From a virus: 64,000 nt of DNA. Below, piece by piece: positions 16,117 to 32,079 of this stretch; positions within the stretch are counted from its first letter, which is position 1; the number at the start of each line of letters is the position of its first letter. Under the pieces are notes generated by a model, which saw only the letters and a list, made by a program, of their open reading frames with translations, did no database searches and was not told the DNA's origin. Made by a program: the position numbers and the translations under genes. The DNA lies in the IMG/VR virus record IMGVR_UViG_3300040815_002027; one strand, 5' to 3'.

Positions 16117-16144
16117 GGTTTTCTGTCGCTTATAGATATTTTTT

Positions 16145-16217: not shown

Positions 16218-16874
16218 ATGGCAGAAAACATCGAGAAGAAAGCACCTAAGAGTAGTGTAAAGTTTTCAATATCTTTATCTGAAGAGCAGAAGTTAGCGAA
16301 GGAACAGATACTAAAACACCCTTATAATTTTATCTTTGGAGAAGCAGGAACTGGTAAGACTCTACTGAGTATACAGATTGCTTTGGATAAGTACTTTAAA
16401 AGGGAGATAAATAGGATAGTCATTACTAGACCTACAGTATCTTCTGAGAATATTGGGTTTTTACCTGGAAGTATTCAGGAGAAAATGGAGCCTTGGTTAA
16501 TACCTATAATGGACAACATAAGAAAGGTTTATTCAAAAGATAACATAATAGAGAAAATGTTTGAAGATGGTGCTATAGAGATAGTATCTTTGTCTCACTT
16601 TAGAGGTCTTACTTTTGACAATGCTGTTTGTATTGTTGATGAGTGTCAAAACCTTACTGTAGAGCAAACTGCTATGTGTATAGGTAGATTAGGTAAAGAC
16701 AGTCAAATGATGTTTTGCGGAGATTATAGACAGGTGGATTTAAAGTATAATGAAGATAGTGGACTATCAAAAATAAAGAACTTAGAGAATAGTTCTTATG
16801 TTTATATTGTAGAATTATTAGAAAACCATAGACACCCAGCTTTAAAAGAAGTTTTAAGATTATATTATTCATAA
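16218..16874 (+). CDS. phoH: PhoH-family ATPase
   Basis: GEAGTGKT, ITRP, GFLPG, FRGLTF, IVDECQN, GDYRQVD, NHRH. Confidence 0.95.
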   Translation: MAENIEKKAPKSSVKFSISLSEEQKLAKEQILKHPYNFIFGEAGTGKTLLSIQIALDKYFKREINRIVITRPTVSSENIGFLPGSIQEKMEPWLIPIMDNIRKVYSKDNIIEKMFEDGAIEIVSLSHFRGLTFDNAVCIVDECQNLTVEQTAMCIGRLGKDSQMMFCGDYRQVDLKYNEDSGLSKIKNLENSSYVYIVELLENHRHPALKEVLRLYYS

Positions 16875-16889: not shown

Positions 16890-17864
16890 ATGGAGTTACC
16901 AGGAGATCCATTATTTTTAGAGGAGCATGAAGAAGTGGATACAGTTTTTACTGATTTTGCATATACCGAAAAATATGTAATTGTACATATAGAGGGAGGT
17001 TTAGGGAAACACATAGCAGCTACGGCAGTTTTAAAGGCTGTAAAAAAGAAGTATAGCGATAGAAAAATTATTGTAGTATGTGGTTATCCAGAGGTGTTCC
17101 TATGGAACCCTGATTGTTGGAGGGTGTATGGCTTAGGAAATACCCCCTATTTTTATGATGATTATGTAAGAGGTAAGGATACTATTATCTTAAAAAATGA
17201 TCCTTATGCTACTACTGACCATATTCATCAAAGGAGACATCTTATAGAAAGTTGGTGCGAGGCCTTTGGATTAGAGTATGATAATGAACTTCCTAACTTA
17301 TATACTCCTTATAGAATGGCAGAGTTAGTTATACAAAAATACTCTAATAGAAATAAGCCTATTCTTCTTTTACATACAAATGGAGGTCCTTACAACGCTG
17401 ATAATAACTATGACGTTAATCAACTAGTAAGTTGGTCTAGAGATATGCCTTTGCCTATAGCTGAAGGTATAGTTAAACATTTCTCTAAAACACATCACAT
17501 TATTCAAATTTGTAAGAGTAAAGAGAATAGGATTCCTGGAGTAGAGCATATAGTAGGTCCTCAATACAATTTAGAGCTAATATCTTTACTTAGGATAGCT
17601 GATAAGAGGATTTTAATAGACTCATGTCTACAGCATGCAGCAGCTGCCTTTAGACTTCCTTCTACAGTATTGTGGAATGGAACATCTCCTACGGTTTTTG
17701 GATATAGCCTACACAATAATATCACTCCTAAAAGGGAGTATATGGAAGGATTTAAGAATATAAAAGCTTACTTATATGACTATGAGCTTTGGGGAGACCC
17801 AATTCAGTGTCCTTATGATACTAATGACATTTATGATTTAGAAACAATAGTAAAAACAACTTAA
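16890..17864 (+). CDS. GT9-like (heptosyltransferase-fold) glycosyltransferase, paralogue 1
   Basis: HIEGGLGKHIAATA at the N-terminus; LIDSCLQHAAAAFRLPSTVLW matches the GT9 D-S/T-x-x-x-H-x-A-A motif. Confidence 0.75.
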   Translation: MELPGDPLFLEEHEEVDTVFTDFAYTEKYVIVHIEGGLGKHIAATAVLKAVKKKYSDRKIIVVCGYPEVFLWNPDCWRVYGLGNTPYFYDDYVRGKDTIILKNDPYATTDHIHQRRHLIESWCEAFGLEYDNELPNLYTPYRMAELVIQKYSNRNKPILLLHTNGGPYNADNNYDVNQLVSWSRDMPLPIAEGIVKHFSKTHHIIQICKSKENRIPGVEHIVGPQYNLELISLLRIADKRILIDSCLQHAAAAFRLPSTVLWNGTSPTVFGYSLHNNITPKREYMEGFKNIKAYLYDYELWGDPIQCPYDTNDIYDLETIVKTT

Positions 17865-17865
17865 A

Positions 17866-18219
17866 ATGCTAGTTTTTAAAATGCCTTGGAAGCAAGAGAC
17901 AGTAAATTTGGAGTCTGTTATTCTTGTTCTAAAAACTTACTCTATTACTAGGGAGGATTTTGAGCATATTATTAACGGAGAAGATGGGGAAGAACGTATA
18001 TCTTGGAAACACAAAATAAGATTAGTTTCTATATTTGAGGTGTATCCAGATGAAGATTCTTTTAGAAGAAGGGTTTTACCAATAACCTTGGTAAAAGATA
18101 CTCATTTACTTGGTAAAGTGGATCAAGAATATGAGAAAATTGTGTGGGAGAAGTTAAAAACTAAAAAAGACGATCTACAAGAGTTCTGGAAAGGTGAAGT
18201 TATTAGTATAGAGGTATAA
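17866..18219 (+). CDS. Hypothetical protein
   Basis: ORF tightly packed in the operon. Confidence 0.5.
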   Translation: MLVFKMPWKQETVNLESVILVLKTYSITREDFEHIINGEDGEERISWKHKIRLVSIFEVYPDEDSFRRRVLPITLVKDTHLLGKVDQEYEKIVWEKLKTKKDDLQEFWKGEVISIEV

Positions 18220-18237
18220 TAATAAAAGTTTTCATAC

Positions 18238-18245
18238 TATTTATA
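18238..18245 (+). promoter_or_regulatory. Putative late promoter TATTTATA
   Basis: Intergenic. Confidence 0.65.
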
Positions 18246-18258
18246 TATAAAGAATAGT

Positions 18259-18657
18259 ATGGCTGCTGGCATATATAACTTTATTATTGAACAAGGCACT
18301 ACTGTTGACTTTAGAATAGACTATAAAGATTCTGACGGAACTCCTTTTGACTTAACTGAATATACAGCAAGGATGCAGATAAGAGACTCTCCTAAAGGAA
18401 GTGTTTTGTATGCATCTTTAACATCTACATTAACACCTTGCGGAACAGGATTAGACTTAACTCCAGAAGTTAACGGAGAAATACAGCCTGCTAGTTCTGG
18501 TAGTATAGGCATTAGTATTAGTGCCTTATCTTCTTCTGCGTTTACATTTGATCAGGCTTACTATGATTTAGAGATTGTGAGCGGGAGTGGTACTTGTGAA
18601 GTAGTTAATAGAGTACTACAAGGAAAAATTAAACTTAGTAAAGAAGTAACTTACTGA
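18259..18657 (+). CDS. Virion structural protein (BppU-like/Ig-fold adaptor)
   Basis: YNFIIEQGTT..DLTEYTARMQIR..YYDLEI..RVLQGKIKLSKEVT pattern. Confidence 0.6.
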   Translation: MAAGIYNFIIEQGTTVDFRIDYKDSDGTPFDLTEYTARMQIRDSPKGSVLYASLTSTLTPCGTGLDLTPEVNGEIQPASSGSIGISISALSSSAFTFDQAYYDLEIVSGSGTCEVVNRVLQGKIKLSKEVTY

Positions 18658-19193
18658 TGTCTAAGAGAATTATAGTATCAAAAGATGATGAGCAGGTAAA
18701 CATAAAGTCTGGTAAGACTCCTAACAATGTAGTAATAGTAAAACCAGATACTAAGGTTGTAACTGTAGCTTCTCAAGGTAAGAGAGGACCTAGAGGATAT
18801 GATGGTGGTACTTTATTTAGACCTACAGGTAGTTTTATATCTACTACTAACAATGTACAAATAACTGGATCATTATCTGCAACAACTCTAATAGGAGACG
18901 GTAACGCTATATATAATATACCTACATCTTCTATTGTTAACTTTAATCAAGCAGTATCCCAGTCTTTGTTTCCTTTTTACGGTAAGGCTGAGATAACAGG
19001 TTCTATAGAGCTACAAAGACCTAGTGTAATTGCAGGTCTAGATTTTTTTATAATAAGGTCAGGGTCTTTTAATGCAGTAACTGTAACATCTGATGGTGTT
19101 TTAAAATTAGGAGAGTTTGATGAATTACCTCCCCCAGTAGCAGGAGGTTTGGCGTATAGTCAAGCAAATTTTTGGGTAGGTACAGAAGATTAG
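18657..19193 (+). CDS. Virion structural/fibre-associated protein
   Basis: Short collagen-like QGKRGPRG and repeated ITGS motifs. Confidence 0.5.
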   Translation: MSKRIIVSKDDEQVNIKSGKTPNNVVIVKPDTKVVTVASQGKRGPRGYDGGTLFRPTGSFISTTNNVQITGSLSATTLIGDGNAIYNIPTSSIVNFNQAVSQSLFPFYGKAEITGSIELQRPSVIAGLDFFIIRSGSFNAVTVTSDGVLKLGEFDELPPPVAGGLAYSQANFWVGTED

Positions 19194-19213
19194 ATTTTTA
19201 TTTAATTCTTATA

Positions 19214-19221
19214 TATTTATA
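19214..19221 (+). promoter_or_regulatory. Putative late promoter TATTTATA
   Basis: Intergenic. Confidence 0.65.
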
Positions 19222-19243
19222 GTAAAGATAAAACTATAGCATA

Positions 19244-20197
19244 ATGGCTCAATGGAAAAAAGTACTCGTTAGTGGTTCTAATATACATGTAAACGAGATA
19301 ACAGCGTCAAGTCTTACTAATGACAACTTAGTTCTTATTGGAACTGGCGGGTCTTTAGAAAGTAGTGGATTAACTTATGATGGTAGTATTTTAGATATAA
19401 CTGCTGCGTCTGTTGTTTCTGGATCACTGTTTTCTGGATCATTTGTAGGTGATGGGTCTGGTTTGACAGGACTTGTTACTACTTTAAATATAACAGGTTC
19501 GGATGGCGGTGAAACTTACGGATCTGTGGATCTTCTTACTCAAGACTTAACTGTTACTGCTGGGGAAGGTATTGATATTACTGTATCAAATCAGAATATA
19601 ACTTTTTCTGGTGAATACGCTACTACTGATAATAATAAAGGTATCGCATCTTTTGATAGTGGAGATTTTGTAGCTACTTCTGGAAATATTACTTTAGCAA
19701 ACTCTCTTGATGGTGCTGTTTTAGCGATTAACGGAACTACAAATGAAACTACTGTTTCTAGAACTTTAGGTACAGTAACTGTTGGATTGCCTGATGATGT
19801 AACTATTACAAACAGTCTTACTGTTCCTACTGCATCTATTACAGGAAATCTATTTGTTGATGGAGATTTAGCAGTTAATGGTGATTTAACTTATATCAAT
19901 ACTGCTAACTTATTTGTAGAAGATAAGTTTATTTTATTAAATAGTGGTTCTGCTAACCCTGATGAAGGTGGTATTATCATTGATGAAGGGTTAGGGTTAG
20001 GACACGCATTCTTTTATGAGGCTGACAGAGTTAGATGGGGATTCAACCAATCAGTAAGCAGTACAGCAACTACTGCTGACACTACTGCGTATGCTGCTGC
20101 TGTAGTAGATGTTGATGGACCTCACACCGACATTTCAGAGTATCAAAAGAATGGTAACATAAAAGTCGAAGGAGGAGAAATATACATCTTTGCATAA
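19244..20197 (+). CDS. Fibre-like virion protein
   Basis: G/S/T-rich beta repeats, SGSFVGDGSGLTG, GDLAVNG..NLFVEDKFI. Confidence 0.65.
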   Translation: MAQWKKVLVSGSNIHVNEITASSLTNDNLVLIGTGGSLESSGLTYDGSILDITAASVVSGSLFSGSFVGDGSGLTGLVTTLNITGSDGGETYGSVDLLTQDLTVTAGEGIDITVSNQNITFSGEYATTDNNKGIASFDSGDFVATSGNITLANSLDGAVLAINGTTNETTVSRTLGTVTVGLPDDVTITNSLTVPTASITGNLFVDGDLAVNGDLTYINTANLFVEDKFILLNSGSANPDEGGIIIDEGLGLGHAFFYEADRVRWGFNQSVSSTATTADTTAYAAAVVDVDGPHTDISEYQKNGNIKVEGGEIYIFA

Positions 20198-20206
20198 ATT
20201 ATAAAA

Positions 20207-20458
20207 TTGTTCATTTCAAAAATTATAAGAGTTTTGCCAACAGTAATTAAGAAAGGTTCTACAAAAGTAGTTACACCAGTTACTACAAAAAGTGTGGAAG
20301 AAGAACCAAAAAGAGAAATATTTTATACTCCTGAAGAATTAGAATTTGTAATTAAGGTATTAGGAGAACAAACATTTAAGATAAAAGAGATAGAGTTTAT
20401 CTATAATTTAATAGTTAAATTACAAGAAGACTATCTCCAACAATCTAAAAAGAAATAA
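20207..20458 (+). CDS. Small hypothetical protein (start uncertain), possible fibre chaperone
   Basis: TTG-start ORF filling the gap, with a helical C-terminus. Confidence 0.45.
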   Translation: MFISKIIRVLPTVIKKGSTKVVTPVTTKSVEEEPKREIFYTPEELEFVIKVLGEQTFKIKEIEFIYNLIVKLQEDYLQQSKKK

Positions 20459-20492
20459 TGTTTAGCATATAGATTATGTTAAACATTTTTTT
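20458..20492 (+). terminator. Possible intrinsic terminator
   Basis: ATGTTTAGCATA-TAGAT-TATGTTAAACAT 12-bp AT-rich stem followed by a T run. Confidence 0.45.
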
Positions 20493-20500
20493 ATATAATT

Positions 20501-20556
20501 TTATTATTGGCCCTTATGGGAAGTGGGCGGTAAATTACCGTAACCAACCATAGTAA
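20501..20556 (+). ncRNA. Candidate structured leader RNA (three-way junction)
   Basis: GC-rich island in an AT-rich spacer: P1 TTATTA-T-TGG/CCA-TAGTAA, P2 CCC-TTAT-GGG, P3 TGG-G-CGGTA-AAT-TACCG-TAA-CCA; ends 11 nt before ATG 20568. Confidence 0.45.
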
Positions 20557-20567
20557 AAAACAGTTAA

Positions 20568-21992
20568 ATGCCTAATTGGAAAAAGGTAATCGTCAGTGGT
20601 TCTGACGCTGTACTTAATAGTGTTAATGCAACAACTGCTCTAACAGCGAGTGGTATAATTTATCCTACCGTAGATGGTACTGCAAATCAAGTAATACAAA
20701 CCGATGGTTTAGGTAATCTATCTTTTGGTTCTGTAGATACGACTTATGAAGTTGTAAAAAATGTATCAGGAACTACTTTATACAAAGGGACTCCTGTTCA
20801 CGCCACAGGGTCAGGAACTTCAGGTAATCTTGTCGGTATTATAGCAGCTTCCGCATCTAATCCTGCCACAATGCCTGCCACCTTAGTTTTAAATGAGGAT
20901 TTAGCAGATGGCGATGAAGGGTATGCTATTATAAGTGGTTTAATACAAGGTGTTGATACCTCTACTTTTGAGAGTGGGCAGGTTATATATGTTGGGGAGA
21001 ATAGTGGATATACAAACGTAAAGCCTACAGGGTCTAATCTTATACAGAATTTAGGTATTGTGACTAAGATACATCCTTCCAATGGAGCGGGTATTGTCTT
21101 AGGAGCAGGTAGAAGTAATGATGTTCCTAATTTACTTAACGGAGAGGTCTTTTGGGGGGAAGGTAATAGAGCTATTAAGAAGCCTCTCGCCCACATTTTG
21201 TCGGGGAGCAGTTACATCTATAGTGGAAGTTTTAGTGGAAGTTTTCAAGGTGATGGAAGTGGTCTAACAGGAATAGCAGTATTAAGGTCACAAGCAATAA
21301 CAGGCTCTTTTACATCTGTTACATCTACTACAATAACACACAACTTAGAAACAGAAAATATATTAGTATCTGTATATGACAATACTAAAAACTATATTAT
21401 ACCTGATTCTATACAGATATTAGACTCTAATAATGTTCAGGTAGGATTCTCTGCTCCAACAACAGGATACGCTGTTGTAACAAATGGGGGTCATATTGTA
21501 AGTGGTTCTATAGATTGGACTAATGTTTTAAATAAACCGAGTGGACTTGTTAGTTCCTCTGCCCAACTTTCTAATCAAACAGTACCAGGAAACTTCACAG
21601 TCGGAGGAATCTTAACTGCTCAAGAGTTTCATACAGAGGTCGTATCAGCATCTATAATTTATCAGAGTGGTTCTACACAGTTTGGAAACTCTTTAGATGA
21701 TACGCATAATTTTATAGGTACAGTATCAGCTTCAAATTTTGTGGGAGATGGCTCACAAATAACCTCGGTTCTTTCGATGCATCAGGAGAACTTTACGTTA
21801 GGTTCTTCTACTAATAGTATTACGGTAACTTCGGGAAGTTTGCCGAGCAGTAATGATAAAATACTTATCTACTATAACGGACAGTTTATAAATAAAACAT
21901 ATATATCTTCTAAGACAACAGATACAATTAACTTAACCTTCTCCGCATCTTTAGGAGACCAAATTGATGTCGTATGGTACAATTTCAATTAA
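20568..21992 (+). CDS. Fibre-like virion protein
   Basis: N-terminus MPNWKKVIVSGS, similar to the 19244 gene; SGSFQGDGSGLTG, ITHNL, LTAQEFHTE..SGSTQFG modules. Confidence 0.65.
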   Translation: MPNWKKVIVSGSDAVLNSVNATTALTASGIIYPTVDGTANQVIQTDGLGNLSFGSVDTTYEVVKNVSGTTLYKGTPVHATGSGTSGNLVGIIAASASNPATMPATLVLNEDLADGDEGYAIISGLIQGVDTSTFESGQVIYVGENSGYTNVKPTGSNLIQNLGIVTKIHPSNGAGIVLGAGRSNDVPNLLNGEVFWGEGNRAIKKPLAHILSGSSYIYSGSFSGSFQGDGSGLTGIAVLRSQAITGSFTSVTSTTITHNLETENILVSVYDNTKNYIIPDSIQILDSNNVQVGFSAPTTGYAVVTNGGHIVSGSIDWTNVLNKPSGLVSSSAQLSNQTVPGNFTVGGILTAQEFHTEVVSASIIYQSGSTQFGNSLDDTHNFIGTVSASNFVGDGSQITSVLSMHQENFTLGSSTNSITVTSGSLPSSNDKILIYYNGQFINKTYISSKTTDTINLTFSASLGDQIDVVWYNFN

Positions 21993-24643
21993 AAAAATTA
22001 TATATAGGTTTAATCTTCCTATTCTTATCTATATCGGTGTACTCACAAGGACCTCCACGATTACGCTTTACTCAGCTACCGCAATCGGATTCTATTGGTT
22101 CTTTACTTCTAACTAATAGTCAGAAGAACTTAGAGTTTACCAACAACCTTAGATATCTTAACAATGTCTTTAGTGTGGTGGGAGATGCTAATTTTGATGA
22201 TAATACGTTGTATGTCGATGCGACTAATAATAGGGTTGGAATTGGTACGGTAAGTCCATCTGTAAAATTGCACATCGAGGGTGGAAATATTTTTGCAAAA
22301 AAAGGCAGTTCATCAATTTTGTTTGATGAATATAATAATGGTTCGATTCTTTGGATGGATGGTTCTGATGGTGATGTAACTGGTGGAGATTATTGGGGCG
22401 TATATGCTCAAAGTTCCACTCTTTGGGGAGTAAATTATGCTGGTGGTAATAATATTCTAAATATAACTTCATCTGGCAACGTAGGAATTGGTACGGATGC
22501 AATAACAGGAAAATTACATATTGTAGGCAATACACCTGGACCTGAATATAGAGGATTTATATACACAAATAATAGCAGCGCAACATTAACTAATGAAAGT
22601 TTATTTCAAGCAGTTGCTGCAGGGTACTCCAGTAATTCACCCATATTCTTATTTAGGGATGATAGAAGTGACCAACAAACAACACAAAGAATATTTGAAT
22701 TACAAGGTGCAAGAAGTGGGGTAGGCACAATTCTTACAACATTAGCCAACGGCAACGTAGGAATTGGTACGAGTACGCCAAATGCCAAACTTGCCATTAA
22801 AGATGGCTCTAACACTGATTTAGAGCTTTTTTCAGAATCAAGCGGTACAGCGTTGCAATCTTACAATAGAACTACTTCTACTTGGGGATATTTAAGGTTT
22901 CTTGCAGGAGGTGGTGAGAAAATGCGTATTCATACAGATGGCAACGTAGGAATAGGTACGACTAATCCGTTAGCTAAGTTAGATGTAAGGGGAAGAACTA
23001 ATGTATGGGGTGGAGGAACTACATCAGGAACATTAGGGTTTAGTGTACTGGACTTAGGTTCTAATTACAACTTTTATGTTGAAGATGATGGTGGAGCTTA
23101 CCTAAGAGGAAATGTTAGAATAGGTAATTCTACAAATAATGGGTATAAGTTAGATGTTAACGGAACGGGTAGGTTTAGTAATACATTAACAGCATCAAGC
23201 ACAGCAGGTGGTACTTCCGCTATATTTCAAAACACAGGAGCACAAAATTCTAATGGTATTGAATTAAGAGGAGGTACTGCTGGCACTTCAGTAAATTGGA
23301 AAATTGAGAAAGACAATACAGTTGGTAATGCTTTTCAGATTACACCATCAACTACTAACGGAGGGACTACTTACACAACTCCATCCCTCACCATAGCCTC
23401 CACAGGTGCAGCCACCTTTAGCAACAACGTAGGAATTGGCCAATTAAATCCAAATGCCCCATTACACGTTGTAGGTCGGGCTATCGCAAGTAATTTTGTT
23501 GTCGGTCCATACTCCTCGCTCAATGACGCAACTGGTATTGCAAACACCTTACAGTTTGGGAATTATGCTATTGCTTCATTTATAGACCAAAATAGTGCAG
23601 ACGCATATGTTTACAAAGCTTCCTCATCAGTTAGCGGCATGGCGCCCCAAACCCTTATGTTTCAAACCAGAAGTGATGTGGATGGTGGTGGTTTTGCTTT
23701 TGTAAGTGGTAATACACCGACAGCTAAGATGTACATTGAAGGTTCATCTGGCAACGTAGGAATTGGTACGACTTCGCCAAGTGCCAAACTTGATGTAGAT
23801 GGTGGTATTAGATTATCAGAAAGTGGAAATTTAAGTGGAAGAGGATATCCTTATACTACTACAGTAGGTTCTGGGGCAGATGCAACAACAACATACATAG
23901 AGGCTGGGTCAACATCAGGGTATCAATCAAGAATAACAGTAGCAGGAGGTGGTGCCGCCACAGACCCTAATACCATAAAGTTTAGTGTTGCTTCTAATGA
24001 ATCAATGCGCATTGATGCAAACGGCAACGTAGGAATTGGTACAACAAGCCCAGATTATAAGCTTGATGTTAACGGAGGTATTAAACTAAACGGCAAATCT
24101 GCCCTAACTGATGACGCATATTTCGTTGGCGCTCCTAATTACGGATTTAGATGGAATAGTGTTGATAATTTATACAATAATGTCATTATGTACGATAATG
24201 GTAATATGTATGTTCGAGGCAACGTAGGAATTGGTACTACTTCACCATCCTACAAACTTCATGTTAATGGTTCTGTTGCAGGTGTAGGAGCATATAATAA
24301 CTTATCTGATGTTAATTATAAAAAGAATATAAATGATTTAGAATTAGGATTAGATATAGTTAAACAGTTAAGACCGATAACATATAATTGGATTAATGAA
24401 GAATATGGTACAAGAACTAATATTGGTTTTATTGCCCAAGAAGTAGAATCTGTATTACCTAACATAGTAACAACAGCTGATGATAATGTTAAATCTATGG
24501 CTACAACAGATTTAATACCAATACTAACTAAAGCTATTCAAGAACAACAAACGATTATAGAAACCCAAGAACAAAAGATACAAGAATTAGAAACTCTACT
24601 ACAAACTTTAGTAAGTAGAATAGAAACATTAGAAAATAAATAA
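21974..24643 (+). CDS. Fibre-like protein with GNVGIGT repeats, C-terminal S74 chaperone and N-terminal signal peptide
   Basis: KKLYIGLIFLFLSISVYS/Q; multiple GNVGIGT..P..KL; LSDVNYKKNI...IGFIAQEV followed by a coiled coil. Confidence 0.75.
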   Translation: MVQFQLKKLYIGLIFLFLSISVYSQGPPRLRFTQLPQSDSIGSLLLTNSQKNLEFTNNLRYLNNVFSVVGDANFDDNTLYVDATNNRVGIGTVSPSVKLHIEGGNIFAKKGSSSILFDEYNNGSILWMDGSDGDVTGGDYWGVYAQSSTLWGVNYAGGNNILNITSSGNVGIGTDAITGKLHIVGNTPGPEYRGFIYTNNSSATLTNESLFQAVAAGYSSNSPIFLFRDDRSDQQTTQRIFELQGARSGVGTILTTLANGNVGIGTSTPNAKLAIKDGSNTDLELFSESSGTALQSYNRTTSTWGYLRFLAGGGEKMRIHTDGNVGIGTTNPLAKLDVRGRTNVWGGGTTSGTLGFSVLDLGSNYNFYVEDDGGAYLRGNVRIGNSTNNGYKLDVNGTGRFSNTLTASSTAGGTSAIFQNTGAQNSNGIELRGGTAGTSVNWKIEKDNTVGNAFQITPSTTNGGTTYTTPSLTIASTGAATFSNNVGIGQLNPNAPLHVVGRAIASNFVVGPYSSLNDATGIANTLQFGNYAIASFIDQNSADAYVYKASSSVSGMAPQTLMFQTRSDVDGGGFAFVSGNTPTAKMYIEGSSGNVGIGTTSPSAKLDVDGGIRLSESGNLSGRGYPYTTTVGSGADATTTYIEAGSTSGYQSRITVAGGGAATDPNTIKFSVASNESMRIDANGNVGIGTTSPDYKLDVNGGIKLNGKSALTDDAYFVGAPNYGFRWNSVDNLYNNVIMYDNGNMYVRGNVGIGTTSPSYKLHVNGSVAGVGAYNNLSDVNYKKNINDLELGLDIVKQLRPITYNWINEEYGTRTNIGFIAQEVESVLPNIVTTADDNVKSMATTDLIPILTKAIQEQQTIIETQEQKIQELETLLQTLVSRIETLENK

Positions 24644-24655
24644 ATTAATATACTT

Positions 24656-25351
24656 ATGAAAACAGCATTTCACATCGTTATTTTTACTGTTCTTTTTCTT
24701 ATTACGTCTACTGTAAAAGGACAGATTCCTGACACAATTTATATAGAATCTTATAACTCTGAAAGTTCTGTTGTGTTAGGTTTATTACAGTCATCGGGAA
24801 CATCTGATGCTACTATATCTTCTGATTATTATATTTTGTATGAAGGTACATACTATCCAAATATAGAGCAGACTGTAATATCTCCTATTGATAGAAGGTT
24901 TACAACACAACAGGCTGTAGATTATTTAGTTAAGTTGATAGAAACGGTAGAGAGTAGGATTTGGTATAACCAAGCCACAGTCTTAAAAAATTTAGATGTG
25001 AATGAGATATACCCAACGGTTAATAGATTATTAGATTCTTTGGGTAGTAGTGGTTATTATGCTGTTATGGCTGATAAGTACGGTAGTAATTTTGATGGAA
25101 TTTGGCAGGTAGATGTAGGGGATGTTAGTTATTATTTAGATTTTACTGAAACAGGAGTTGTTACTGAAGTAGATAGTAGTTTTGTTCCGCTCCCCCAAAA
25201 AAGTGCGGGAGCGTACCTCATAAAAACTTTAGGAAGATTTGTACTAACTAATATAGAAGGTTTACCAACCCCTATAACCTTTACAAAAAGTTTAGATAGT
25301 AGTTTTTACTACAATGAAACTAAAACTATTAAAATACAAAAATTACTGTAA
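24656..25351 (+). CDS. Secreted hypothetical protein
   Basis: Signal peptide MKTAFHIVIFTVLFLITSTVKG/Q. Confidence 0.55.
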   Translation: MKTAFHIVIFTVLFLITSTVKGQIPDTIYIESYNSESSVVLGLLQSSGTSDATISSDYYILYEGTYYPNIEQTVISPIDRRFTTQQAVDYLVKLIETVESRIWYNQATVLKNLDVNEIYPTVNRLLDSLGSSGYYAVMADKYGSNFDGIWQVDVGDVSYYLDFTETGVVTEVDSSFVPLPQKSAGAYLIKTLGRFVLTNIEGLPTPITFTKSLDSSFYYNETKTIKIQKLL

Positions 25352-25353
25352 CT

Positions 25354-25563
25354 ATGACAAAATACAGAATTTACAAACAACTAATACCTGCCCCATTTAA
25401 TGCTAATGACCCTCATTGGGCAAAAAGACAGGTATGGGTACAGAAACTAAATAGTACAGATACGATAGATGAGTTTGATACAGAGGCAGAGGCACAAGCC
25501 TATGCCGATGAACTAACACAGGCAGACCCGACCTCTCGTATTTATGAGATACGTCAAGTGTAA
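25354..25563 (+). CDS. Small hypothetical protein
   Basis: 69-aa ORF with typical spacing. Confidence 0.55.
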   Translation: MTKYRIYKQLIPAPFNANDPHWAKRQVWVQKLNSTDTIDEFDTEAEAQAYADELTQADPTSRIYEIRQV

Positions 25564-25581
25564 AATGTGCGGGAGAGGCTC

Positions 25582-25589
25582 TATTTATA
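25582..25589 (+). promoter_or_regulatory. Putative late promoter TATTTATA
   Basis: Intergenic, 20 nt before ATG 25610. Confidence 0.65.
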
Positions 25590-25609
25590 TATAAAACAAA
25601 CTATACCGT

Positions 25610-28600
25610 ATGCGTACCATAGGTAATCTAACAATATCAGGTTCATTAAATACAAGTGGTTCTATAAGAGCAACTACCTTTATAGGAGTTGTGAGTTCTT
25701 CTGCCCAACTTTCTACAGAGATATCAGGAGCATTTACGTCTACCTCTGCCTCACTTGCTTCTGATATACAGAACAATGATACACGATTATCTACCTTGGA
25801 GGGTAAGACCTTGGTGAGTTCTTCTGCACAAATATCTTATACAGGTATTACAGATATACCTAATGGGATTGTGAGTTCTTCTGCCCAACTTTCTATAACA
25901 GAATCCCAAATAAGTGATTTAACTCATTATACTAACTCCGATACTTTATCTTATATTAATAGTATAGGAGTTGTATCAGGTTCTGCTCAAATAACTCTTT
26001 CTTCTGCTACAGGTAATTTAACAGCAGTAAGAATATCAGATTTTGATACAGAGGTTTCTAATAATACTTCTGTAGTTGCAAATACAGCAAAAGTAGGTTA
26101 TACAGATGCTTTAGTTAAAGCAAAACTGAATACAGAGTCTGTTTTAAGTGGTTCTATTACATCTGCTAAAATAACAGATGTAGATGCATTTTCACAATCA
26201 GGAACTTATGCTAATTTAAGAGCGCAAGGAACTACAGCATCTGATGTTGGTTTAGGTAATGTTACAAACGAGTCTAAGGCAACGATGTTTACAAATGCTG
26301 CTTTGACAGGAAATCCAACAGCACCTACCCAAACAGGAACTGACGATTCTACTAAAATTGCAACAACTGCATTTGTACAGGGTAGAATTGATACTATAAT
26401 AGGAACTGCGGGTTCTGCATTAGATACGTTAGGAGAACTGTCAGCTTCGTTATCTAATGACCAAGATGCTTTAGTTTCACTTACCACTACGGTAGGTACT
26501 AAATTAGCAAAATCTTCAAACTTATCAGATTTAACAAATGTTGTAACAGCAAGGACAAACTTAGGATTAGGTACTGCTGCAACAACAAATTCTACCGCTT
26601 ATGCTACGGCAGCTCAAGGTACTAATGCTGATACTGCTTACAGTTGGGGAGACCATTCTTTAGAAGGATACACAACTTGCATAGGTGATATAACAGGAGT
26701 AACAGCAGGAACAGGACTCACAGGAGGAGGTACAAGTGGAACAGTAACCGTATCTCACGCTGATACGTCTACATTAACAGGTGCGCAAGGTAGTGCAGGT
26801 ATAGCATCTATCACAGTAGATGCTTTAGGTCACGTTACGGCTGTAACAACAGCAACATATTGCACTACAGACACTAATACCACTTATACCGCAAATGAAA
26901 TGCTTACTTGCATTAAGACTGTGGATGGAGCAGGTAGTGGACTTGATGCGGATACTTTGGATGGTTTAGATTCTTCTCAATTTTTGAGAAGTGATACTTC
27001 TGATACGTTCAATGGAACTCTATCTGTATCGGGTAATATTGAATCATCAAATCAAATATCTGTTAATAACAGAACAGCTATTTCAGTTGCACATTGGTCA
27101 GCTCCTTCGACAACTACAGGTGCTATAAAAATACAAATACCTGGTTTGCATATTGGCAATTATAGTATGTTAGTATTGAGAATTACTGTATATGAATATA
27201 ACTCAACAGCTGCTACAATTTACTATGTTTCAGGACATGATTGGACATCAGGATGGTATAATAATGGAGTTATAAAAATCGGTAATGGAAACAAAGATAT
27301 AAGTTTAGGTTATGATTCTAATTATGATTATATTATAGTAGGTGATACATCATCTTCTTGGTCTTATGGGCATGTAACCGTAGATGTAATGTCTCATCCA
27401 AGTTTCTATAGTAGCCTGATGGATATTACATCAGGATGGAACATAACCCAAGAGACATCACTATCAGGCATTACAACTCAGAGTGTAATAAATAAAAGAG
27501 TGCTTACAACATCAGATGAAGGGTCAGGAAATGGACTTGATGCAGACTTATTAGATGGACAACAAGGTTCTTATTATTTAGATTATAATAACTTTACTAA
27601 TAAACCTACAATACCCACCAATAACAACCAACTTACGAATGGGGCAGGGTACTGTACAACAGATACTACTTATACCGCAAATGAAATGCTTACTTGCATT
27701 AAGACTGTGGATGGAGCAGGTAGTGGACTTGATGCAGATTTGTTGGATGGTAATCAAGCAAGTGCGTTTTATTTAGCTACAAACCCAAGTGGATACACAA
27801 CTTGTACAGGAACTCTAACAGGCACAGGAACATCAGGATATATATCAAAGTGGAATGGAAGTACATCTCAAACTAATTCTGTTATTTATGATAATGGTAC
27901 AAACGTAGGAATTGGTACGACTAATCCTTTATCTAAATTGCAAGTTGGTACAAGAGGAACTAATAGTGCTTTATCGCTTGGGCTTACTGATGCTATTTTA
28001 TTTGATTTTTACAATGATAATTCTCCTTTTAAAAGACACGGAGTAATAATATCTCAAGCTGCAGACGCAAGTGAGTCTGTTTTGGATTTTAATACAAAAG
28101 CAGCCAACGGAACAAATACCACTAAGATGACTATTTTAGGAAACGGCAACGTAGGGATAGGTACTACTACTCCTGCTGCGAACTTGGATGTAAATGGGAG
28201 TGGTAGATTCAACGGTAGCTTAATAGTAAATACTGGTAATATACTTAGTTTAGACCAAAATTATAATGTGCATGGATATCTAAAATTCTCAGTTACCGAC
28301 TTTGGAAGTGAAAATTCTTTTGGAATGTATGGTTATTATGGCCTTGCTTTTCAGACAAGGCAAGGCATAGGAATTGTACTTAAAGGAAACTCTAACAACG
28401 TAGGTATAGGTACTACGTCTCCATCCACCAAACTTGAAGTGAACGGTACAGCTACAGTTACTACCATTGTAGAAACATCTGCATTAAGATTTAAGGAAAA
28501 TATAAATACTATAGAAGATACATCTATTATAGATAAGTTAAGACCTGTCTCTTTTGATTGGAAAGACTCTAAAGAAACAGAATATGGGTTTATAGCAGAA

Positions 28601-28759
28601 GAAGTTTATGATTTAGATACTACTCTTGTTACAAAAAGTGGGGAAGATGAACTACAAGGTGTAAAGTACACAAAACTAATACCTCTACTTGTTAAAAAAG
28701 TGCAGGAGCAGGACAAACAAATAAATAAACTAAAAGATTTACTAAATGGCAACACTTAA
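25610..28759 (+). CDS. Long tail fibre protein with S74 chaperone
   Basis: VSSSAQ repeats, LTGNPTAPT..STKIATTAFV, GSGLDADLLDG, GNVGIGT; TSALRFKENI...YGFIAEEV. Confidence 0.8.
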   Translation: MRTIGNLTISGSLNTSGSIRATTFIGVVSSSAQLSTEISGAFTSTSASLASDIQNNDTRLSTLEGKTLVSSSAQISYTGITDIPNGIVSSSAQLSITESQISDLTHYTNSDTLSYINSIGVVSGSAQITLSSATGNLTAVRISDFDTEVSNNTSVVANTAKVGYTDALVKAKLNTESVLSGSITSAKITDVDAFSQSGTYANLRAQGTTASDVGLGNVTNESKATMFTNAALTGNPTAPTQTGTDDSTKIATTAFVQGRIDTIIGTAGSALDTLGELSASLSNDQDALVSLTTTVGTKLAKSSNLSDLTNVVTARTNLGLGTAATTNSTAYATAAQGTNADTAYSWGDHSLEGYTTCIGDITGVTAGTGLTGGGTSGTVTVSHADTSTLTGAQGSAGIASITVDALGHVTAVTTATYCTTDTNTTYTANEMLTCIKTVDGAGSGLDADTLDGLDSSQFLRSDTSDTFNGTLSVSGNIESSNQISVNNRTAISVAHWSAPSTTTGAIKIQIPGLHIGNYSMLVLRITVYEYNSTAATIYYVSGHDWTSGWYNNGVIKIGNGNKDISLGYDSNYDYIIVGDTSSSWSYGHVTVDVMSHPSFYSSLMDITSGWNITQETSLSGITTQSVINKRVLTTSDEGSGNGLDADLLDGQQGSYYLDYNNFTNKPTIPTNNNQLTNGAGYCTTDTTYTANEMLTCIKTVDGAGSGLDADLLDGNQASAFYLATNPSGYTTCTGTLTGTGTSGYISKWNGSTSQTNSVIYDNGTNVGIGTTNPLSKLQVGTRGTNSALSLGLTDAILFDFYNDNSPFKRHGVIISQAADASESVLDFNTKAANGTNTTKMTILGNGNVGIGTTTPAANLDVNGSGRFNGSLIVNTGNILSLDQNYNVHGYLKFSVTDFGSENSFGMYGYYGLAFQTRQGIGIVLKGNSNNVGIGTTSPSTKLEVNGTATVTTIVETSALRFKENINTIEDTSIIDKLRPVSFDWKDSKETEYGFIAEEVYDLDTTLVTKSGEDELQGVKYTKLIPLLVKKVQEQDKQINKLKDLLNGNT
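26882..27735 (+). repeat. 68-bp exact direct repeat within the fibre gene (26882-26949 and 27668-27735)
   Basis: Both copies encode TYTANEMLTCIKTVDGAGSGLDA with identical DNA. Confidence 0.9.
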
Positions 28760-29603
28760 AAATACCGTTGTAAATGATACAGGATATTTAAAATTACCCG
28801 CAGGTACAGATGCACAAAGACCTGGTACACCACAAGCAGGTATGATGAGATGGAATACTACATCAAGTGGTGTAGAGGTATATAATGGAACATCTTGGAG
28901 TGGTGTAGGTAGTAGTGATGCAGATACTTTAGATGGCATCGACAGCACAGGGTTTGTTAAAAATAACTGCAGCCAAACTAATCATGTCCTAATGTTTGGT
29001 GCTGGATATAACACAAGTCACGGTGATTGCGCCTACGCCATATTTCAGGAAGGTGGAACTTGGTCATACCCCTACCCTGACCTGAGAATCGCATACCACA
29101 CTGGCATTAAAATAGGAGCGAATACAAGTTACCAAGGCACCAGGTTTTACAATGACTACAATATGGCAACTGAGTTGTTCAGCGTAGGTAACGGAGATAA
29201 CAACGTCAGAGTAGCTTATAACCTATATGCTCCTATCTTCTATGATTCAAACAACACTGGGTATTATGTAGACCCTGCAAGTACATCTAACTTTAATACA
29301 ATATGTGCTGCTAATTATTGTGGATTACCTGCAAGTGGCGGTGGTCAATGTCAATATTGCATTGTTGTAAACGGTTTTTCAAGCTGTACAGTAAGTCCAG
29401 GTAAAAGTTTATTTGTAAGCATTAATAACAGTAATTATGATACGGGGTTTGTTAATGCAGATAATTATATGGCTACATATGTTAGCAACAATGGTTGGTC
29501 TAATTACAATTACTTACGATTACGTTGTATTAGTAGTACATCTACATCAATTACTGTTTGTAGACAATGTGCTGGTGATACTTGGTTTTATGTAAAATAT
29601 TAA
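28746..29603 (+). CDS. Short fibre/tip protein with Cys-rich C-terminus
   Basis: LKLPAGTDAQRP..GMMRWNT, DADTLDG, FYDSNNTGYYVDPAS. Confidence 0.65.
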   Translation: MATLKNTVVNDTGYLKLPAGTDAQRPGTPQAGMMRWNTTSSGVEVYNGTSWSGVGSSDADTLDGIDSTGFVKNNCSQTNHVLMFGAGYNTSHGDCAYAIFQEGGTWSYPYPDLRIAYHTGIKIGANTSYQGTRFYNDYNMATELFSVGNGDNNVRVAYNLYAPIFYDSNNTGYYVDPASTSNFNTICAANYCGLPASGGGQCQYCIVVNGFSSCTVSPGKSLFVSINNSNYDTGFVNADNYMATYVSNNGWSNYNYLRLRCISSTSTSITVCRQCAGDTWFYVKY

Positions 29604-29606
29604 ACT

Positions 29607-30002
29607 ATGTATATAAAAATAGAAAATAATATAATAACTGAAATACATCAAACAGAAGTAGAAAACAGCTACTTTATTGAGGATGGTGTTATGTTAGAAG
29701 TAGGGTGGACAGTAGGGTTATGGGATGAAGGTAAACCTATAGGTTTTGGAAGTTCATCAATACCCTCTACTGCTGAACAAATACAGCAAGCTGAATATGA
29801 TAATACTATAGAAGAAGTAAATAATAAGAGAAATATACTACTTCAAGAAACTGATTGGATAGTAATCAGAGCAGTAGATACCAGTACACCTATGCCTGTA
29901 TATTGGCAAGTATACAGACAGGCTTTAAGAGATATTACTACTCATGCTAATTATCCTTTTTTACAAGATGAAGATTGGCCTATTAAACCACAAAATATAT
30001 AA
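29607..30002 (+). CDS. Tail fibre assembly chaperone
   Basis: RNILLQETDW...WQVYRQALRDIT...WPIKP. Confidence 0.8.
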   Translation: MYIKIENNIITEIHQTEVENSYFIEDGVMLEVGWTVGLWDEGKPIGFGSSSIPSTAEQIQQAEYDNTIEEVNNKRNILLQETDWIVIRAVDTSTPMPVYWQVYRQALRDITTHANYPFLQDEDWPIKPQNI

Positions 30003-30004
30003 AA

Positions 30005-30337
30005 ATGAATATTACATATAGTTGGAAAATAATTAGTTTATTTAAGCAAACAGTAGATAGTTTGCAAGATGTAGTCATTAGAGTAAAATATCATTACGTT
30101 GGAATTGATAGTGTTAGTGGAGAGCAAGGTAAGTTTGAAGGAGTAAGTCCTTTACCAACACCTACACAAGAAGGATTTATACCATTTGACCAATTAACAG
30201 AACAAAACGTTATAGAGTGGTTAATAGCAAATGTAGACCCAACACACATGCAGACAAGAATAATTAGAGAAATAGAAAGAAAATTAAACCCAGAACAAGA
30301 AGTAGATTCTTTGCCTTGGGATATTGGTAATTTATAA
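30005..30337 (+). CDS. Fibre-associated hypothetical protein
   Basis: ITYSWKI...FIPFDQLTEQNVIEW...LPW pattern typical of phage fibre loci. Confidence 0.55.
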   Translation: MNITYSWKIISLFKQTVDSLQDVVIRVKYHYVGIDSVSGEQGKFEGVSPLPTPTQEGFIPFDQLTEQNVIEWLIANVDPTHMQTRIIREIERKLNPEQEVDSLPWDIGNL

Positions 30338-30348
30338 ATTAATATAAT

Positions 30349-31263
30349 ATGAGTTTTGACAGTCAAGAAAAGTTTGTAATTTTCCACATTGCAGGTGGAG
30401 TAGGTAAACATATTGCAGCAACAGCTGTGTTAGAAGGTATTAATGATAAATACCCAGACAGAAAACTAATTGTAGTATGTGCTTGGACAGAAGTATTTGA
30501 ATTTCATCCATTAGTAGATAGAGTTTATCAGTTAGGTAATACCGATTACTTTTATCAAGATTATATTGAAGGTAAAGATGTTGTAATACTTATGCACGAC
30601 CCTTATCATGTTACAGGACATATAAAACAGGAACAGCACTTGATTAAAAGTTGGTATGAATGTTTAAATCTTGACTATAATAACCAACTACCTAAGTTGT
30701 ACAGTTCTTATAGAATAAGAGAAATTGTATTGCAGAAGTTTAGAAGAAACAAGCCTATTATGCTTATTCACAGTAATGGTGGTATGATACCTAATGATAA
30801 TGAAGTTAATCCTTACAACATTAAAAGTTGGGCAAGAGATATGCCTTTAAGTCTTGTACAGAAATTAGTAGATAAATATAAAGATACATATCATATTATG
30901 CAGGTTTGTAAGCATAAGAATAACTTAGTACAGGGTGCAGAGTATGTACAAACACACTCTTTATTAGAGTTGTTTACTTTGTTAAGATTGACTACTAAAA
31001 GAATTTTAATAGACAGCTCTTTGCAACATGCAGCAGCTGCTTATCAGTTACCTTCTGTTGTTTTATGGAATACAACATCACCTAATGTATATAGCTATGA
31101 TATACATAAGAATGTTTTATCTAATAAAGAAAAACTAACAGCAAAAAATAGAACAACCTATTTCGAAGAGTATGCAATAGATGGCAACCCTTTACAATGT
31201 CCTTATGAAGATGAGGATATATTTGATTTTGAAGAAGTTACAGAACTCGTAGATAAATTATAA
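30349..31263 (+). CDS. GT9-like glycosyltransferase, paralogue 2
   Basis: HIAGGVGKHIAATA, LIDSSLQHAAAAYQLPSVVLW; collinear with the 16890 gene. Confidence 0.75.
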   Translation: MSFDSQEKFVIFHIAGGVGKHIAATAVLEGINDKYPDRKLIVVCAWTEVFEFHPLVDRVYQLGNTDYFYQDYIEGKDVVILMHDPYHVTGHIKQEQHLIKSWYECLNLDYNNQLPKLYSSYRIREIVLQKFRRNKPIMLIHSNGGMIPNDNEVNPYNIKSWARDMPLSLVQKLVDKYKDTYHIMQVCKHKNNLVQGAEYVQTHSLLELFTLLRLTTKRILIDSSLQHAAAAYQLPSVVLWNTTSPNVYSYDIHKNVLSNKEKLTAKNRTTYFEEYAIDGNPLQCPYEDEDIFDFEEVTELVDKL

Positions 31264-31367
31264 AACTTGTCAAGATGACAAAATACAGAATTTCTAATTT
31301 ATAGAATGGGATATTAGGATTATTTATAAAAAGTTTGCGAGAAGCCTAAAAAACTAAAACAGTTATA

Positions 31368-31401: not shown

Positions 31402-31620
31402 ATGAAAACACTACTTAAACTATTAGTAGTTACAGTAGTTTTATCCTCTTGTTCAACTTATCGTTCTGCTTATCACTATGAACCTATGTACTATTACTCA
31501 CGATTACCTATGAGTACAAAACAGCAGTATAGTATAGCACAAGAGTATTTTAACCAATTAACTAACTCTAAAAAACCTACGGTTACTATCGTAGAAAAAG
31601 TTGGGGAGAAGCAACCCTAA
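31402..31620 (+). CDS. Small lipoprotein
   Basis: MKTLLKLLVVTVVLSS/C lipobox. Confidence 0.65.
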   Translation: MKTLLKLLVVTVVLSSCSTYRSAYHYEPMYYYSRLPMSTKQQYSIAQEYFNQLTNSKKPTVTIVEKVGEKQP

Positions 31621-31713: not shown

Positions 31714-32079
31714 ATGTCTACTATTGGTATCGAAAAATTAACACCTACTATCAGAACAGTTGCACAACTTATCACAGCATTAACTAAAATTGATGCTAAT
31801 AAGGATGGTAACATCGACACAGCAGAAATCTTTGCAATCGTACAAGTATTTGTAATGAAGGTTGTTGCTGTATACGGCTCACTACCTGCTGCACTTGCTG
31901 AACTAAAGGATGTTGATTCTACCGAAAGAAAAGAACTTGTTAAGGTATTTAACGAAGAGTTTGACTTGAGTAATGATGTGTTGGAAGGTCTTATCGAAGA
32001 ATGGTTGGTCATTGTTGACCAATTAGTAACTTTAGGATTAAAGACAGCTTCTCACTTTAAAACAGAACCTCAAGCGTAA
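31714..32079 (+). CDS. Small helical protein with an EF-hand loop
   Basis: DANKDGNIDTAE canonical 12-residue loop. Confidence 0.6.
   Translation: MSTIGIEKLTPTIRTVAQLITALTKIDANKDGNIDTAEIFAIVQVFVMKVVAVYGSLPAALAELKDVDSTERKELVKVFNEEFDLSNDVLEGLIEEWLVIVDQLVTLGLKTASHFKTEPQA

Follow-up and report, generated by a model that had tools for sequence, protein, structure and literature searches.

Phage proteins of the GT9 glycosyltransferase fold with lysine at the catalytic aspartate position: a viral family that may decorate virion proteins

A stretch of 64,000 nt from virus record IMGVR_UViG_3300040815_002027 (the window, by which we mean this whole stretch of DNA) encodes two paralogous proteins, GT9L-1 and GT9L-2, that have the fold of family GT9 glycosyltransferases and carry a Lys where the WaaC-type heptosyltransferases of that family carry their catalytic Asp. 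The source is an estuarine, T4-like phage whose record runs to 102 kb and is ~56% complete. We posit that both proteins are soluble and catalytically competent and belong to a large branch of the GT9 GT-B fold, restricted to phages and here called the GK type, and our best guess, held with middling confidence as to both branch and target, is that virion proteins are the acceptors. In the proposed mechanism, GK-type enzymes would still bind a nucleotide sugar supplied by the host (ADP-heptose-like) and would transfer that sugar during the multistep assembly of a glycan, which would be built on Ser/Thr/Gly-rich virion proteins, namely, tail fibers and the small proteins encoded after the capsid gene. 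A virion-protein glycan seems the most likely product because the genes are colocated with those for such proteins and appear once to have traveled with them as a cassette.

A GT9 fold in two paralogues

A preliminary description of this DNA had reported two open reading frames (ORFs) with the loop GG(L/V)GKHIAATA and the C-terminal motif DS.LQH, and both are present. In GT9L-1, the loop GGLGKHIAATA occupies nt 16995-17027, with the codon for Lys40 at 17007-17009, and the C-terminal motif DSCLQH lies at nt 17619-17636; in GT9L-2, the loop GGVGKHIAATA spans nt 30394-30426 (Lys20 codon, 30406-30408), and DSSLQH lies at nt 31012-31029. The two proteins are 52% identical across 300 residues (E 1e-108), and the GG-x-G-K loop, T25, R163-D164, D-S-x-x-Q-H, W240, and Y250 are found in both. 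Identity falls from 60% in the N-domain to 49% in the C-domain and 37% in the tail, a distribution that does not suggest acceptor-side divergence between them. Both match phrog_8954, which is listed in PHROGs as of unknown function (E 1e-10 and 5e-4).

Based on structural comparison, the fold is clear. The AlphaFold2 (AF2) model of GT9L-2, built from a 36-sequence homologue alignment, has a pLDDT of 88 and a pTM of 0.87, and the first Rossmann domain opens the chain with its strand beta1, as it would in GT9L-1. VIA-align places this model closest to the Veillonella GT9 protein 3TOV (Z 23.1; root mean square deviation, 3.2; 268 residues aligned), followed by WaaF 1PSW (Z 20.5), WaaC 2H1F (Z 19.9), TibC 4RAP (Z 19.0), and the GT9-fold chain 7WFF_a of the chloroplast NADH dehydrogenase-like-photosystem I (NDH-PSI) complex (Z 18.4), while every other GT-B family reaches a Z of at most 10.5. 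Foldseek returns 3TOV, 1PSW, 6DFE, and TibC at E 1e-10 to 1e-7. Because GT9 structures so far outscore the other GT-B families, and because Foldseek agrees, we regard the modeled GT9 fold of the window proteins as firm, and the GT9-like identity first read from the sequence is borne out. Searches by sequence are less sensitive to this likeness: the Pfam Glyco_transf_9 match of both proteins is confined to the C-terminal donor region, the NCBIfam profile for heptosyltransferase I (TIGR02193) gives 16-20 bits against a cut-off of 185, and sequence and profile searches of the PDB detected the donor motif alone (E 1.8 and 0.0085). Tubulin matches from a single-sequence PDB search were rejected as chance.

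Lysine at the position of the catalytic aspartate

Does the Lys truly stand where WaaC has Asp13? Structural comparison with WaaC had been proposed as the check on this point, and the Lys does fall on D13, with three methods in agreement. In the VIA-align range, model residue 8 pairs with WaaC residue 1, and the ungapped strand and loop then place K20 on D13 and G19 on G12. A MAFFT L-INS-i alignment of the family with Escherichia coli WaaC, WaaF, and WaaQ (SSMGD, WVGD, and YHGD at the aligned loop) and with a phage GD-type GT9 protein pairs the Lys of GK with the Asp of GD throughout. Finally, when a family alignment of 123 sequences is compared by hhalign with one of WaaC, WaaF, and WaaQ, the match covers 248 columns with a probability of 96% (E 4.6e-9), in a register that runs from F9-R2 to K20-D13 and on to D222-D261 and H227-H266. 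This full-length register required both the deeper family alignment and the small GT9 alignment; the 36-sequence alignment set against WaaC or WaaF alone aligned the C-terminal motif only (probability, 15-52%), and a search for WaaC homologues yielded only relatives of at least 83% identity, which were useless as a profile. The C-terminal motif is retained as originally claimed, DSCLQH and DSSLQH aligning with DTGLSH of WaaC (D261...H266) and DSGLMH of WaaF. It is confirmed that neither the resemblance to GT9 nor the Asp-to-Lys substitution is a product of chance.

The substituted residue is one on which well-studied relatives depend. Losses in WaaC amount to 4,688-fold for D13A, 2,027-fold for D261A, and 926-fold for K192A, and the E. 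coli heptosyltransferases HepI-IV are all reported to have D13 (PMC5713226); in TibC, Asp110 is the equivalent base by superposition on WaaC (PMC4358343).

A large family restricted to viruses

Conservation across relatives shows that the Lys is a trait of the family and no local mutation. A word-indexed search yielded 2,074 relatives, and exhaustive searching with a profile brought the family to 1,426 clusters (50% identity; E up to 1e-3), 242 of them below 1e-30; IMG/VR holds at least 565 loci. Among the 150 best cluster representatives, the column reads K in 131, R in 4, and another residue in 5, with 10 fragments lacking the position, so that K or R is present in 135 of 140 full-length representatives of the 50% clusters. 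The loop is GG[LFI]GK[NH] in every one of the 80 IMG/VR loci that we inspected. At least 90% conservation in 111 diverse members is seen for G16, G17, K20, T25, Y86, W102, R163, D222, S223, H227, W240, and Y250, and the donor motif keeps its D in 137 and its H in 140 of 145 aligned members, a pattern that, judged from sequence, is typical of enzyme constraint. The only conserved Cys, Cys284, is invariant solely among close relatives.

The family seems confined to viruses. No member turned up when one genome per prokaryote species (185,579 in all) was scanned for the motif, and neighbors in the ESM Atlas are viral clusters only. Its distant members include gp49 of the Pelagibacter phages HTVC111P and HTVC112P, which are cultured 32-kb SAR11 podophages; gp49 carries the motifs GGVGK and DSCLNH, and the family hidden Markov model (HMM) recognizes it at E 3e-45. 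These pelagiphage members were found through a fiber homologue and the family HMM, and tblastn of GT9L-2 against cultured phages returned one uncultured single-virus genome only. The preprint describing the pelagiphages labels gp49 "GTF" and gives no analysis (10.1101/2019.12.14.876532), and our literature search found no paper that analyzes the GK-type family. Based on its sequences, the family appears to be a phage-specific GT9 variant that fails the tests of both the curated sequence score and the catalytic Asp, although a few fused members barely pass the gathering score of PF01075 (22.4-22.9 bits).

Gene neighborhoods and candidate targets

The placement of both paralogues in a structural module, as first described, holds up: GT9L-1 and GT9L-2 lie between two terminator-like sites along with tail-fiber genes, in the same orientation as all their neighbors (Table 1). 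Downstream of the major capsid gene (14494-16116) come a hairpin, the PhoH gene, GT9L-1, genes for small proteins, and genes for fiber-like proteins of 474 and 889 aa. A 5.9-kb block follows, consisting of a 69-aa gene, a 1049-aa fiber, a 285-aa Cys-rich protein, a chaperone, a DUF7936 protein, and GT9L-2; beyond it lie small ORFs at 31402-31620 and 31714-32079, the second hairpin, and the neck, sheath, and tube genes. This block is bracketed by two copies of a 26-nt repeat that are 88% identical, the second of which duplicates, in truncated form, the start of the 69-aa gene. Because the repeat brackets the block, GT9L-2 would have moved, or been kept, as a cassette with its fiber, and the repeat pair looks like a recombination scar. 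The N terminus of the 285-aa protein matches virion structural and tail-fiber proteins of cyanophages. The DUF7936 ORF matches the HMM of a neighbor cluster drawn from 20 related loci (E 1.9e-9), as well as phrog_7802, and the representative of that cluster matches PF25590 at 5e-9.

Table 1. Features of the window and one cultured relative
Feature	Positions	Strand	Size or remarks
GT9L-1, GK-type GT9-fold glycosyltransferase paralogue	16890-17864	+	324 aa
GT9L-2, GK-type GT9-fold glycosyltransferase paralogue	30349-31263	+	304 aa
Strong terminator-like hairpin	16145-16169	+	3' of major capsid gene; upstream limit of unit with both paralogues
Strong terminator-like hairpin	32109-32134	+	closes fiber/GT9L block
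PhoH-like ATPase	16218-16874	+	phrog_170, E 6e-66; conserved immediate upstream neighbor of GT9L-1
178-aa and 317-aa Ser/Thr/Gly-rich, Cys-free proteins	18657-20197	+	conserved downstream of GT9L-1 orthologues; candidate acceptors
889-aa tail fiber	21974-24643	+	phrog_9942, E 4e-41; 0 Cys
1049-aa tail fiber of GT9L-2 cassette	25610-28759	+	tail-fiber PHROGs; 6 Cys, S+T 27%
285-aa fiber-associated protein	28746-29603	+	10 Cys (3.5%); candidate acceptor
Tail-fiber assembly chaperone-like protein	29607-30002	+	phrog_4912, E 4e-14; other tail-fiber assembly PHROGs
DUF7936-family small protein	30005-30337	+	conserved immediate upstream neighbor of GK-type genes
Left copy of 26-nt direct repeat	25347-25372	+	start of 69-aa gene (at 25354), MTKYRI...
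Right copy of 26-nt direct repeat	31268-31293	+	duplicate gene start: MTKYRISNL, then stop
HTVC112P gp49	L099:4439-5317		directly after tail fiber gp48; annotated "putative glycosyl transferase" (QGZ18226.1)

Related loci (given by L numbers) show how far this arrangement extends. In a tree, the family falls into two fully supported clades, with 15 rows in clade A, which holds both window paralogues, and 77 in clade B. Orthologues of GT9L-1 follow Gp23 and PhoH and precede proteins of ~120, ~132, ~175, and ~310 aa, and the order Gp23-PhoH-GT9L, with small Ser/Thr/Gly-rich proteins next, is conserved in five phages (that of the window, L004, L091/L092, L094, and L095), the PhoH-like neighbor matching PF02562 in L091, L094, and L095. 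Other clade A members come after fiber genes and just before the sheath gene (L089), and one, in L093, sits in a cluster with an N-acetylglucosamine-transferase-like gene, methyltransferases, and HtrL_YibB, between DNA polymerase genes. Clade B has richer company. A sulfotransferase of the type that uses 3'-phosphoadenosine-5'-phosphosulfate (PAPS; PF13469, E 2e-19) adjoins the GK-type gene in 72 of 80 loci, a NodU/Nol-like carbamoyltransferase is nearby in 23, and genes for GT8, GT4-like proteins, FkbM methyltransferases, and 2-oxoglutarate (2OG) oxygenases are further neighbors; the GK-type domain itself is fused to GT25 in three cases and to an FkbM methyltransferase in three, in both orders. 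The protein-modifying heptosyltransferases Aah and TibC had been offered as a precedent for protein acceptors, and this fits well: 9 related loci have, as the gene immediately 5' of the GK-type one, an Aah/TibC-like gene of canonical GD type with a four-Cys cluster (TIGR04414, E 1e-31).

Several of these loci have features of their own. The Aah/TibC-like gene at L014:9081-9998 (also in L016, L026, L042, L045, L071, L079, and L080) stands between the GT8 and GK-type genes, downstream of Cys-rich fibers of 800-1500 aa. Beside the sulfotransferase/GK-type unit at L011:5306-6113 and in 22 other loci, a small P-loop kinase gene product resembling adenosine 5'-phosphosulfate (APS) kinase (PF01583, E 9e-11) accompanies a cytidylyltransferase-like protein (PF01467, E 3e-5), and this pair could provide the phage with a PAPS supply or could be a sugar-activation pair. 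In L009:3460-9302, the GK-type gene is preceded by three tandem 2OG-Fe(II) oxygenases (PF13759, E 8e-25) and followed by as many tandem Cys-rich proteins of ~325 aa, equal counts that suggest one-to-one enzyme-substrate pairs. At L007:617-5624 and in related loci, the Cys-rich fibers encoded 5' of many GK-type genes are made of repeats of the type N-T-A-x-G-x-x-A and end in a Peptidase_S74 chaperone domain; we take these repeats to be reminiscent of trimeric-autotransporter heads.

Could the target instead be a glycan of the host envelope (lipopolysaccharide [LPS], capsule, or glycoprotein), remodeled during infection to mask a receptor, for example, rather than the virion? We regard this as possible though unlikely. 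GT9 enzymes classically act on LPS cores, and the sulfotransferase, carbamoyltransferase, GT8, GT25, and FkbM partners are typical of polysaccharide tailoring; moreover, the clade A relative in L093 lies in its cluster of modifying enzymes away from obvious fibers. However, the N-domains of the GT9L proteins are acidic (pI 5.0-5.5; net charge, -6 to -9), unlike those of WaaC and WaaF, which bind lipid A and 3-deoxy-D-manno-octulosonic acid (pI 9.7-10; net charge, +6 to +8), and this acidity makes an anionic, membrane-bound LPS core an unlikely acceptor. A virion target is favored because fiber-adjacent placement is consistent, in myovirus-like contigs and even in 32-kb podophages, because GT9L-2 shares a cassette with a fiber, because the Aah/TibC-like and 2OG oxygenase partners are protein directed, and because the neighbors are rich in Ser, Thr, and Gly.

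Alternatively, the GK-type proteins might have lost catalysis altogether and serve as fiber chaperones or structural parts, a reading that we find scarcely probable. The otherwise universal catalytic Asp is missing, a chain of the chloroplast NDH-PSI complex is among the structural matches (7WFF_a), and GT9L genes adjoin fiber-assembly chaperone genes. Still, the donor motif and many polar residues are kept across ~1,400 clusters, and this constraint, the enzyme-rich neighborhoods, and the fusions with GT25 and FkbM are reasons to favor an active transferase. In all likelihood, then, the relatives catalyze steps of glycan building, with virion proteins their probable target.

We give next to no credence to glycosylation of phage DNA in the manner of T4 beta-glucosyltransferase (BGT). 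Hydroxymethylated bases can be glycosylated by GT-B enzymes of phages, heptose being among the sugars attached, but the enzymes in question resemble T4 BGT and not GT9 (10.1101/2023.12.21.572611). The window does encode a 2OG oxygenase at 4009-4599; against this, T4 BGT is not among the top structural matches, the GT9L proteins have a net charge of -6 to -9, and their genes are not grouped with those of DNA metabolism.

Elsewhere in the window, a region at 977-4599 looks, from its sequence, like a second, independent glycosylation kit of the same phage. Lying just after a Cys-rich fiber end that carries a Peptidase_S74 chaperone domain, it encodes a 462-aa mucin-like protein with 18 Cys and with poly-Thr tracts split by AP/DAP, then a 306-aa ORF that has no Pfam match, a DXD glycosyltransferase (PF04488, E 5e-14), and the 2OG-Fe(II) oxygenase already mentioned (PF13640, E 2.5e-10). 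Within the 1049-aa fiber, an 89-nt repeat (94% identical) at 26877-26965 and 27663-27751, 786 nt apart, encodes a Cys-containing ...TYTANEMLTCIKTVDGAGSGLDAD... module; one RNA-library contig joins 26881 to 27668, exactly across the 786-nt unit, and represents either a repeat-collapsed assembly or a shorter fiber allele. A 572-aa ORF at 11687-13405 combines, unusually, a prohead protease match (phrog_207, residues 446-552) with a match to a thymidylate-synthase PHROG (residues 75-188, E 2e-9).

Estuary metatranscriptome contigs of at least 99% identity cover 30483-30753 and 30631-31138 in GT9L-2; parts of both GT9L genes are uncovered, depth over GT9L-1 is ~1 or less, and we draw no inference from this patchy coverage, the contigs representing presence in RNA libraries rather than proof of transcription. 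Over the capsid gene (14494-16169 region), contig depth is far above that of the downstream block in four estuary metatranscriptome libraries, and the capsid contigs of three runs end at 16123-16146, beside the first hairpin, which we note as a weak hint.

Role of the lysine and nature of the acceptor

What might the Lys do if the proteins are indeed glycosyltransferases? The beta1-alpha1 loop has been remade as a Gly-rich element (GG-x-G-K) at a helix N terminus, and we speculate that Lys and loop together would form an anion-binding, electrostatic element rather than supply a carboxylate base. This element would hold the donor pyrophosphate upon domain closure, taking over the apparently lost role of Lys192; alternatively, it would bind an anionic acceptor group. 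The proton would be taken up by the leaving phosphate or by a different conserved residue, for which D164, H253, and Y250 are candidates; a Lys that itself acts as the general base is conceivable. That the Lys helps to hold a pyrophosphate or anionic group is the simplest reading, in which we have less confidence than in the virion as target. Is the near-invariant R163 part of the answer? It may substitute for the Lys192 equivalent.

Could the anion be the acceptor itself? The nucleophile or its anchor would then be a phosphate, a sulfate, or a carboxylate rather than a thiolate, and GG-x-G-K would form an anion hole on the acceptor side, like the one proposed for the N-terminal G-loop of MurG. 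A Gly-rich loop with a Lys at a helix N terminus is a classic anion-binding arrangement, the Lys is conspicuous in an otherwise acidic N-domain, and clade B is tightly coupled to the sulfotransferase and to the PAPS-type kinase/nucleotidyltransferase pair. Yet clade A keeps the Lys with no sulfotransferase in view, and nothing points out a phosphorylated or sulfated acceptor; we judge an acceptor of this kind distinctly unlikely.

The preliminary description favored another anion. It suggested that the Lys could suit a pre-ionized nucleophile and that the enzymes might S-glycosylate the Cys thiolates of Cys-speckled fibers, and it proposed that co-occurrence of GK-type genes with such fibers be examined. 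We counted as Cys-rich any nonenzyme protein of at least 250 aa and at least 2.5% Cys within four genes of the GK-type gene. Such a protein is present in 23 of 44 distinct GK-type loci, compared with an ORF background of 13% and with 3 of 28 sheath-anchored loci of related phages that lack a GK-type gene (Fisher p 3.6e-4, uncorrected for phylogeny); this control is not fiber matched, since no block was conserved enough to yield a matched fiber-family control from IMG/VR. (One of 80 sheath-anchored loci holds a GK-type gene.) The proposed co-occurrence is thus borne out in part, and the result is mixed, as about half of the GK-type loci have no Cys-rich neighbor. Further points in favor of thiolates are that the commonest upstream fiber family (alignment A3) has Cys in 99 columns, only 3 of them conserved, unlike structural disulfides; that the window encodes Cys-rich proteins at 3-974, 977-2365, and 28746-29603; and that Cys makes up 1.85% of the HTVC112P fiber, compared with 0.16% and 0.86% of the homologues from phages where the gene is missing (n=3, an anecdotal sample).

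These observations are outweighed by others. The conserved neighbors downstream of GT9L-1 orthologues have no Cys in the window, L091, and L094, nor do the one that is readable in L004 and the first two in L095, and the 474-aa and 889-aa fiber proteins of the window are equally Cys free; it is Ser/Thr/Gly richness, not Cys, that all neighbors have in common. The same loci encode Aah/TibC-like O-heptosyltransferases along with substrates that are poly-Thr or S/T rich, and these favor O-linkage; S-glycosyltransferases (SunS/ThuS-type GT2, UGT74B1) are not known to show a base-to-Lys change. We therefore did not retain Cys S-glycosylation, which we hold to be highly improbable. Some pre-ionized nucleophile, understood more broadly than Cys, is somewhat more likely as the acceptor than S-glycosylation would require, and that the GK-type GT9 proteins form a mechanistically distinct GT-B class that dispenses with a carboxylate base and glycosylates such a nucleophile (fiber Cys, phosphate, or sulfate) is a proposal that we strongly doubt.

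Several points weigh against the view that these proteins are active GT9-branch enzymes directed at the virion. Both score below the gathering threshold of PF01075 (Glyco_transf_9), with 12.7 bits for GT9L-1 and 17.0 for GT9L-2 against 22. Given the ~4,700-fold loss in WaaC D13A, a nonacidic residue at this position could mean that transfer activity has been lost. Among 150 sequences, the column aligned with WaaC Lys192, a residue that contacts the donor phosphate/anomeric region, holds Y 69 times, K 14 times, and V 10 times, within a loop that aligns unreliably, and the role that we assign to the Lys at position 20 rests on analogy. Whether virion proteins or glycans of the host envelope are targeted cannot be told from gene neighborhood. 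Finally, in the 102-kb record, cluster HMMs for the sulfotransferase, APS-kinase-like, nucleotidyltransferase-like, carbamoyltransferase, GT8, and BAHT-like partners have no match, and neither do PF01467 and PF13580 of the ADP-heptose pathway or PF00483; because that record is ~56% complete, an absence of partner and donor genes from the phage is not established.

Relation to known systems

With the proteins of CAZy family GT9 (WaaC 2GT1/2H1F/2H1H/6DFE, WaaF 1PSW, and Veillonella 3TOV), the phage family shares the two-Rossmann GT-B fold, the beta1-loop-alpha1 register, and the C-domain motif D-[ST]-x-L-x-H. It differs in having Lys for the Asp13 base within a GG-x-G-K rather than an S-x-G-D loop, in an apparent lack of conservation at the unreliably aligned Lys192 position, in its acidic rather than strongly basic N-domain, and in being found in viruses only, with the window proteins falling below Pfam and NCBIfam cut-offs. 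TibC and Aah (bacterial autotransporter heptosyltransferases [BAHT], TIGR04414; 4RAP/4RB4) are alike in their GT9-related core and in being soluble enzymes encoded beside a repetitive surface fiber, which they modify and which the phage enzymes are predicted to modify. The window proteins, in contrast, have neither the N-terminal beta-barrel nor the four-Cys iron finger, carry Lys in place of the Asp110 base of TibC (PMC4358343), and give no match to TIGR04414 even at E up to 10.

Other comparisons are looser. The chloroplast NDH-PSI chain (7WFF chain a; 9GRX, 7F9O) is likewise a GT9-like fold outside LPS synthesis, but it is a structural part of a membrane complex, whereas donor-site residues of the phage family are strongly constrained. 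The glycosylation enzymes of mycobacteriophages are not known to share the fold of the GK-type family. As cited in PMC12619734, glycosyltransferases that mycobacteriophages encode beside structural genes add glycans to proteins of the capsid and tail (Freeman et al. 2023, PMC10527164); those phages have other hosts, and glycosylation is shown by chemistry there and inferred here. Closest is gp49 of HTVC111P and HTVC112P, a member of the same family encoded directly after a tail-fiber gene (fiber gp48, then gp49), although it belongs to a distant branch and to a 32-kb SAR11 podophage. New in the present work are the residue-level test of the Lys, the family-wide statistics, and the acidic N-domain, together with the two-copy clade that has no sulfotransferase, the scar of the fiber cassette, and the cultured pelagiphage members.

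Significance

The GK-type family is large and abundant in aquatic phages, including cultured phages of SAR11. In it, the one rule reported for the GT9 heptosyltransferases examined to date, an Asp base where helix alpha1 begins, is broken while the donor site is kept, and the family is therefore a natural experiment on GT-B transfer in the absence of that base. If the acceptor were indeed a pre-ionized nucleophile, the resulting virion glycan would have a type of linkage that is not known for any virus. Chemical proof of virion glycosylation is so far known only from mycobacteriophages and giant algal viruses. If the fibers are decorated, then marine and estuarine phages would carry tailored glycan coats, which in relatives of the window phage may also be sulfated, carbamoylated, and methylated, with possible effects on host recognition, on stickiness to marine polymers, and on the survival of particles. 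The cultured phages HTVC111P and HTVC112P offer a laboratory system for the whole family and make these questions testable.

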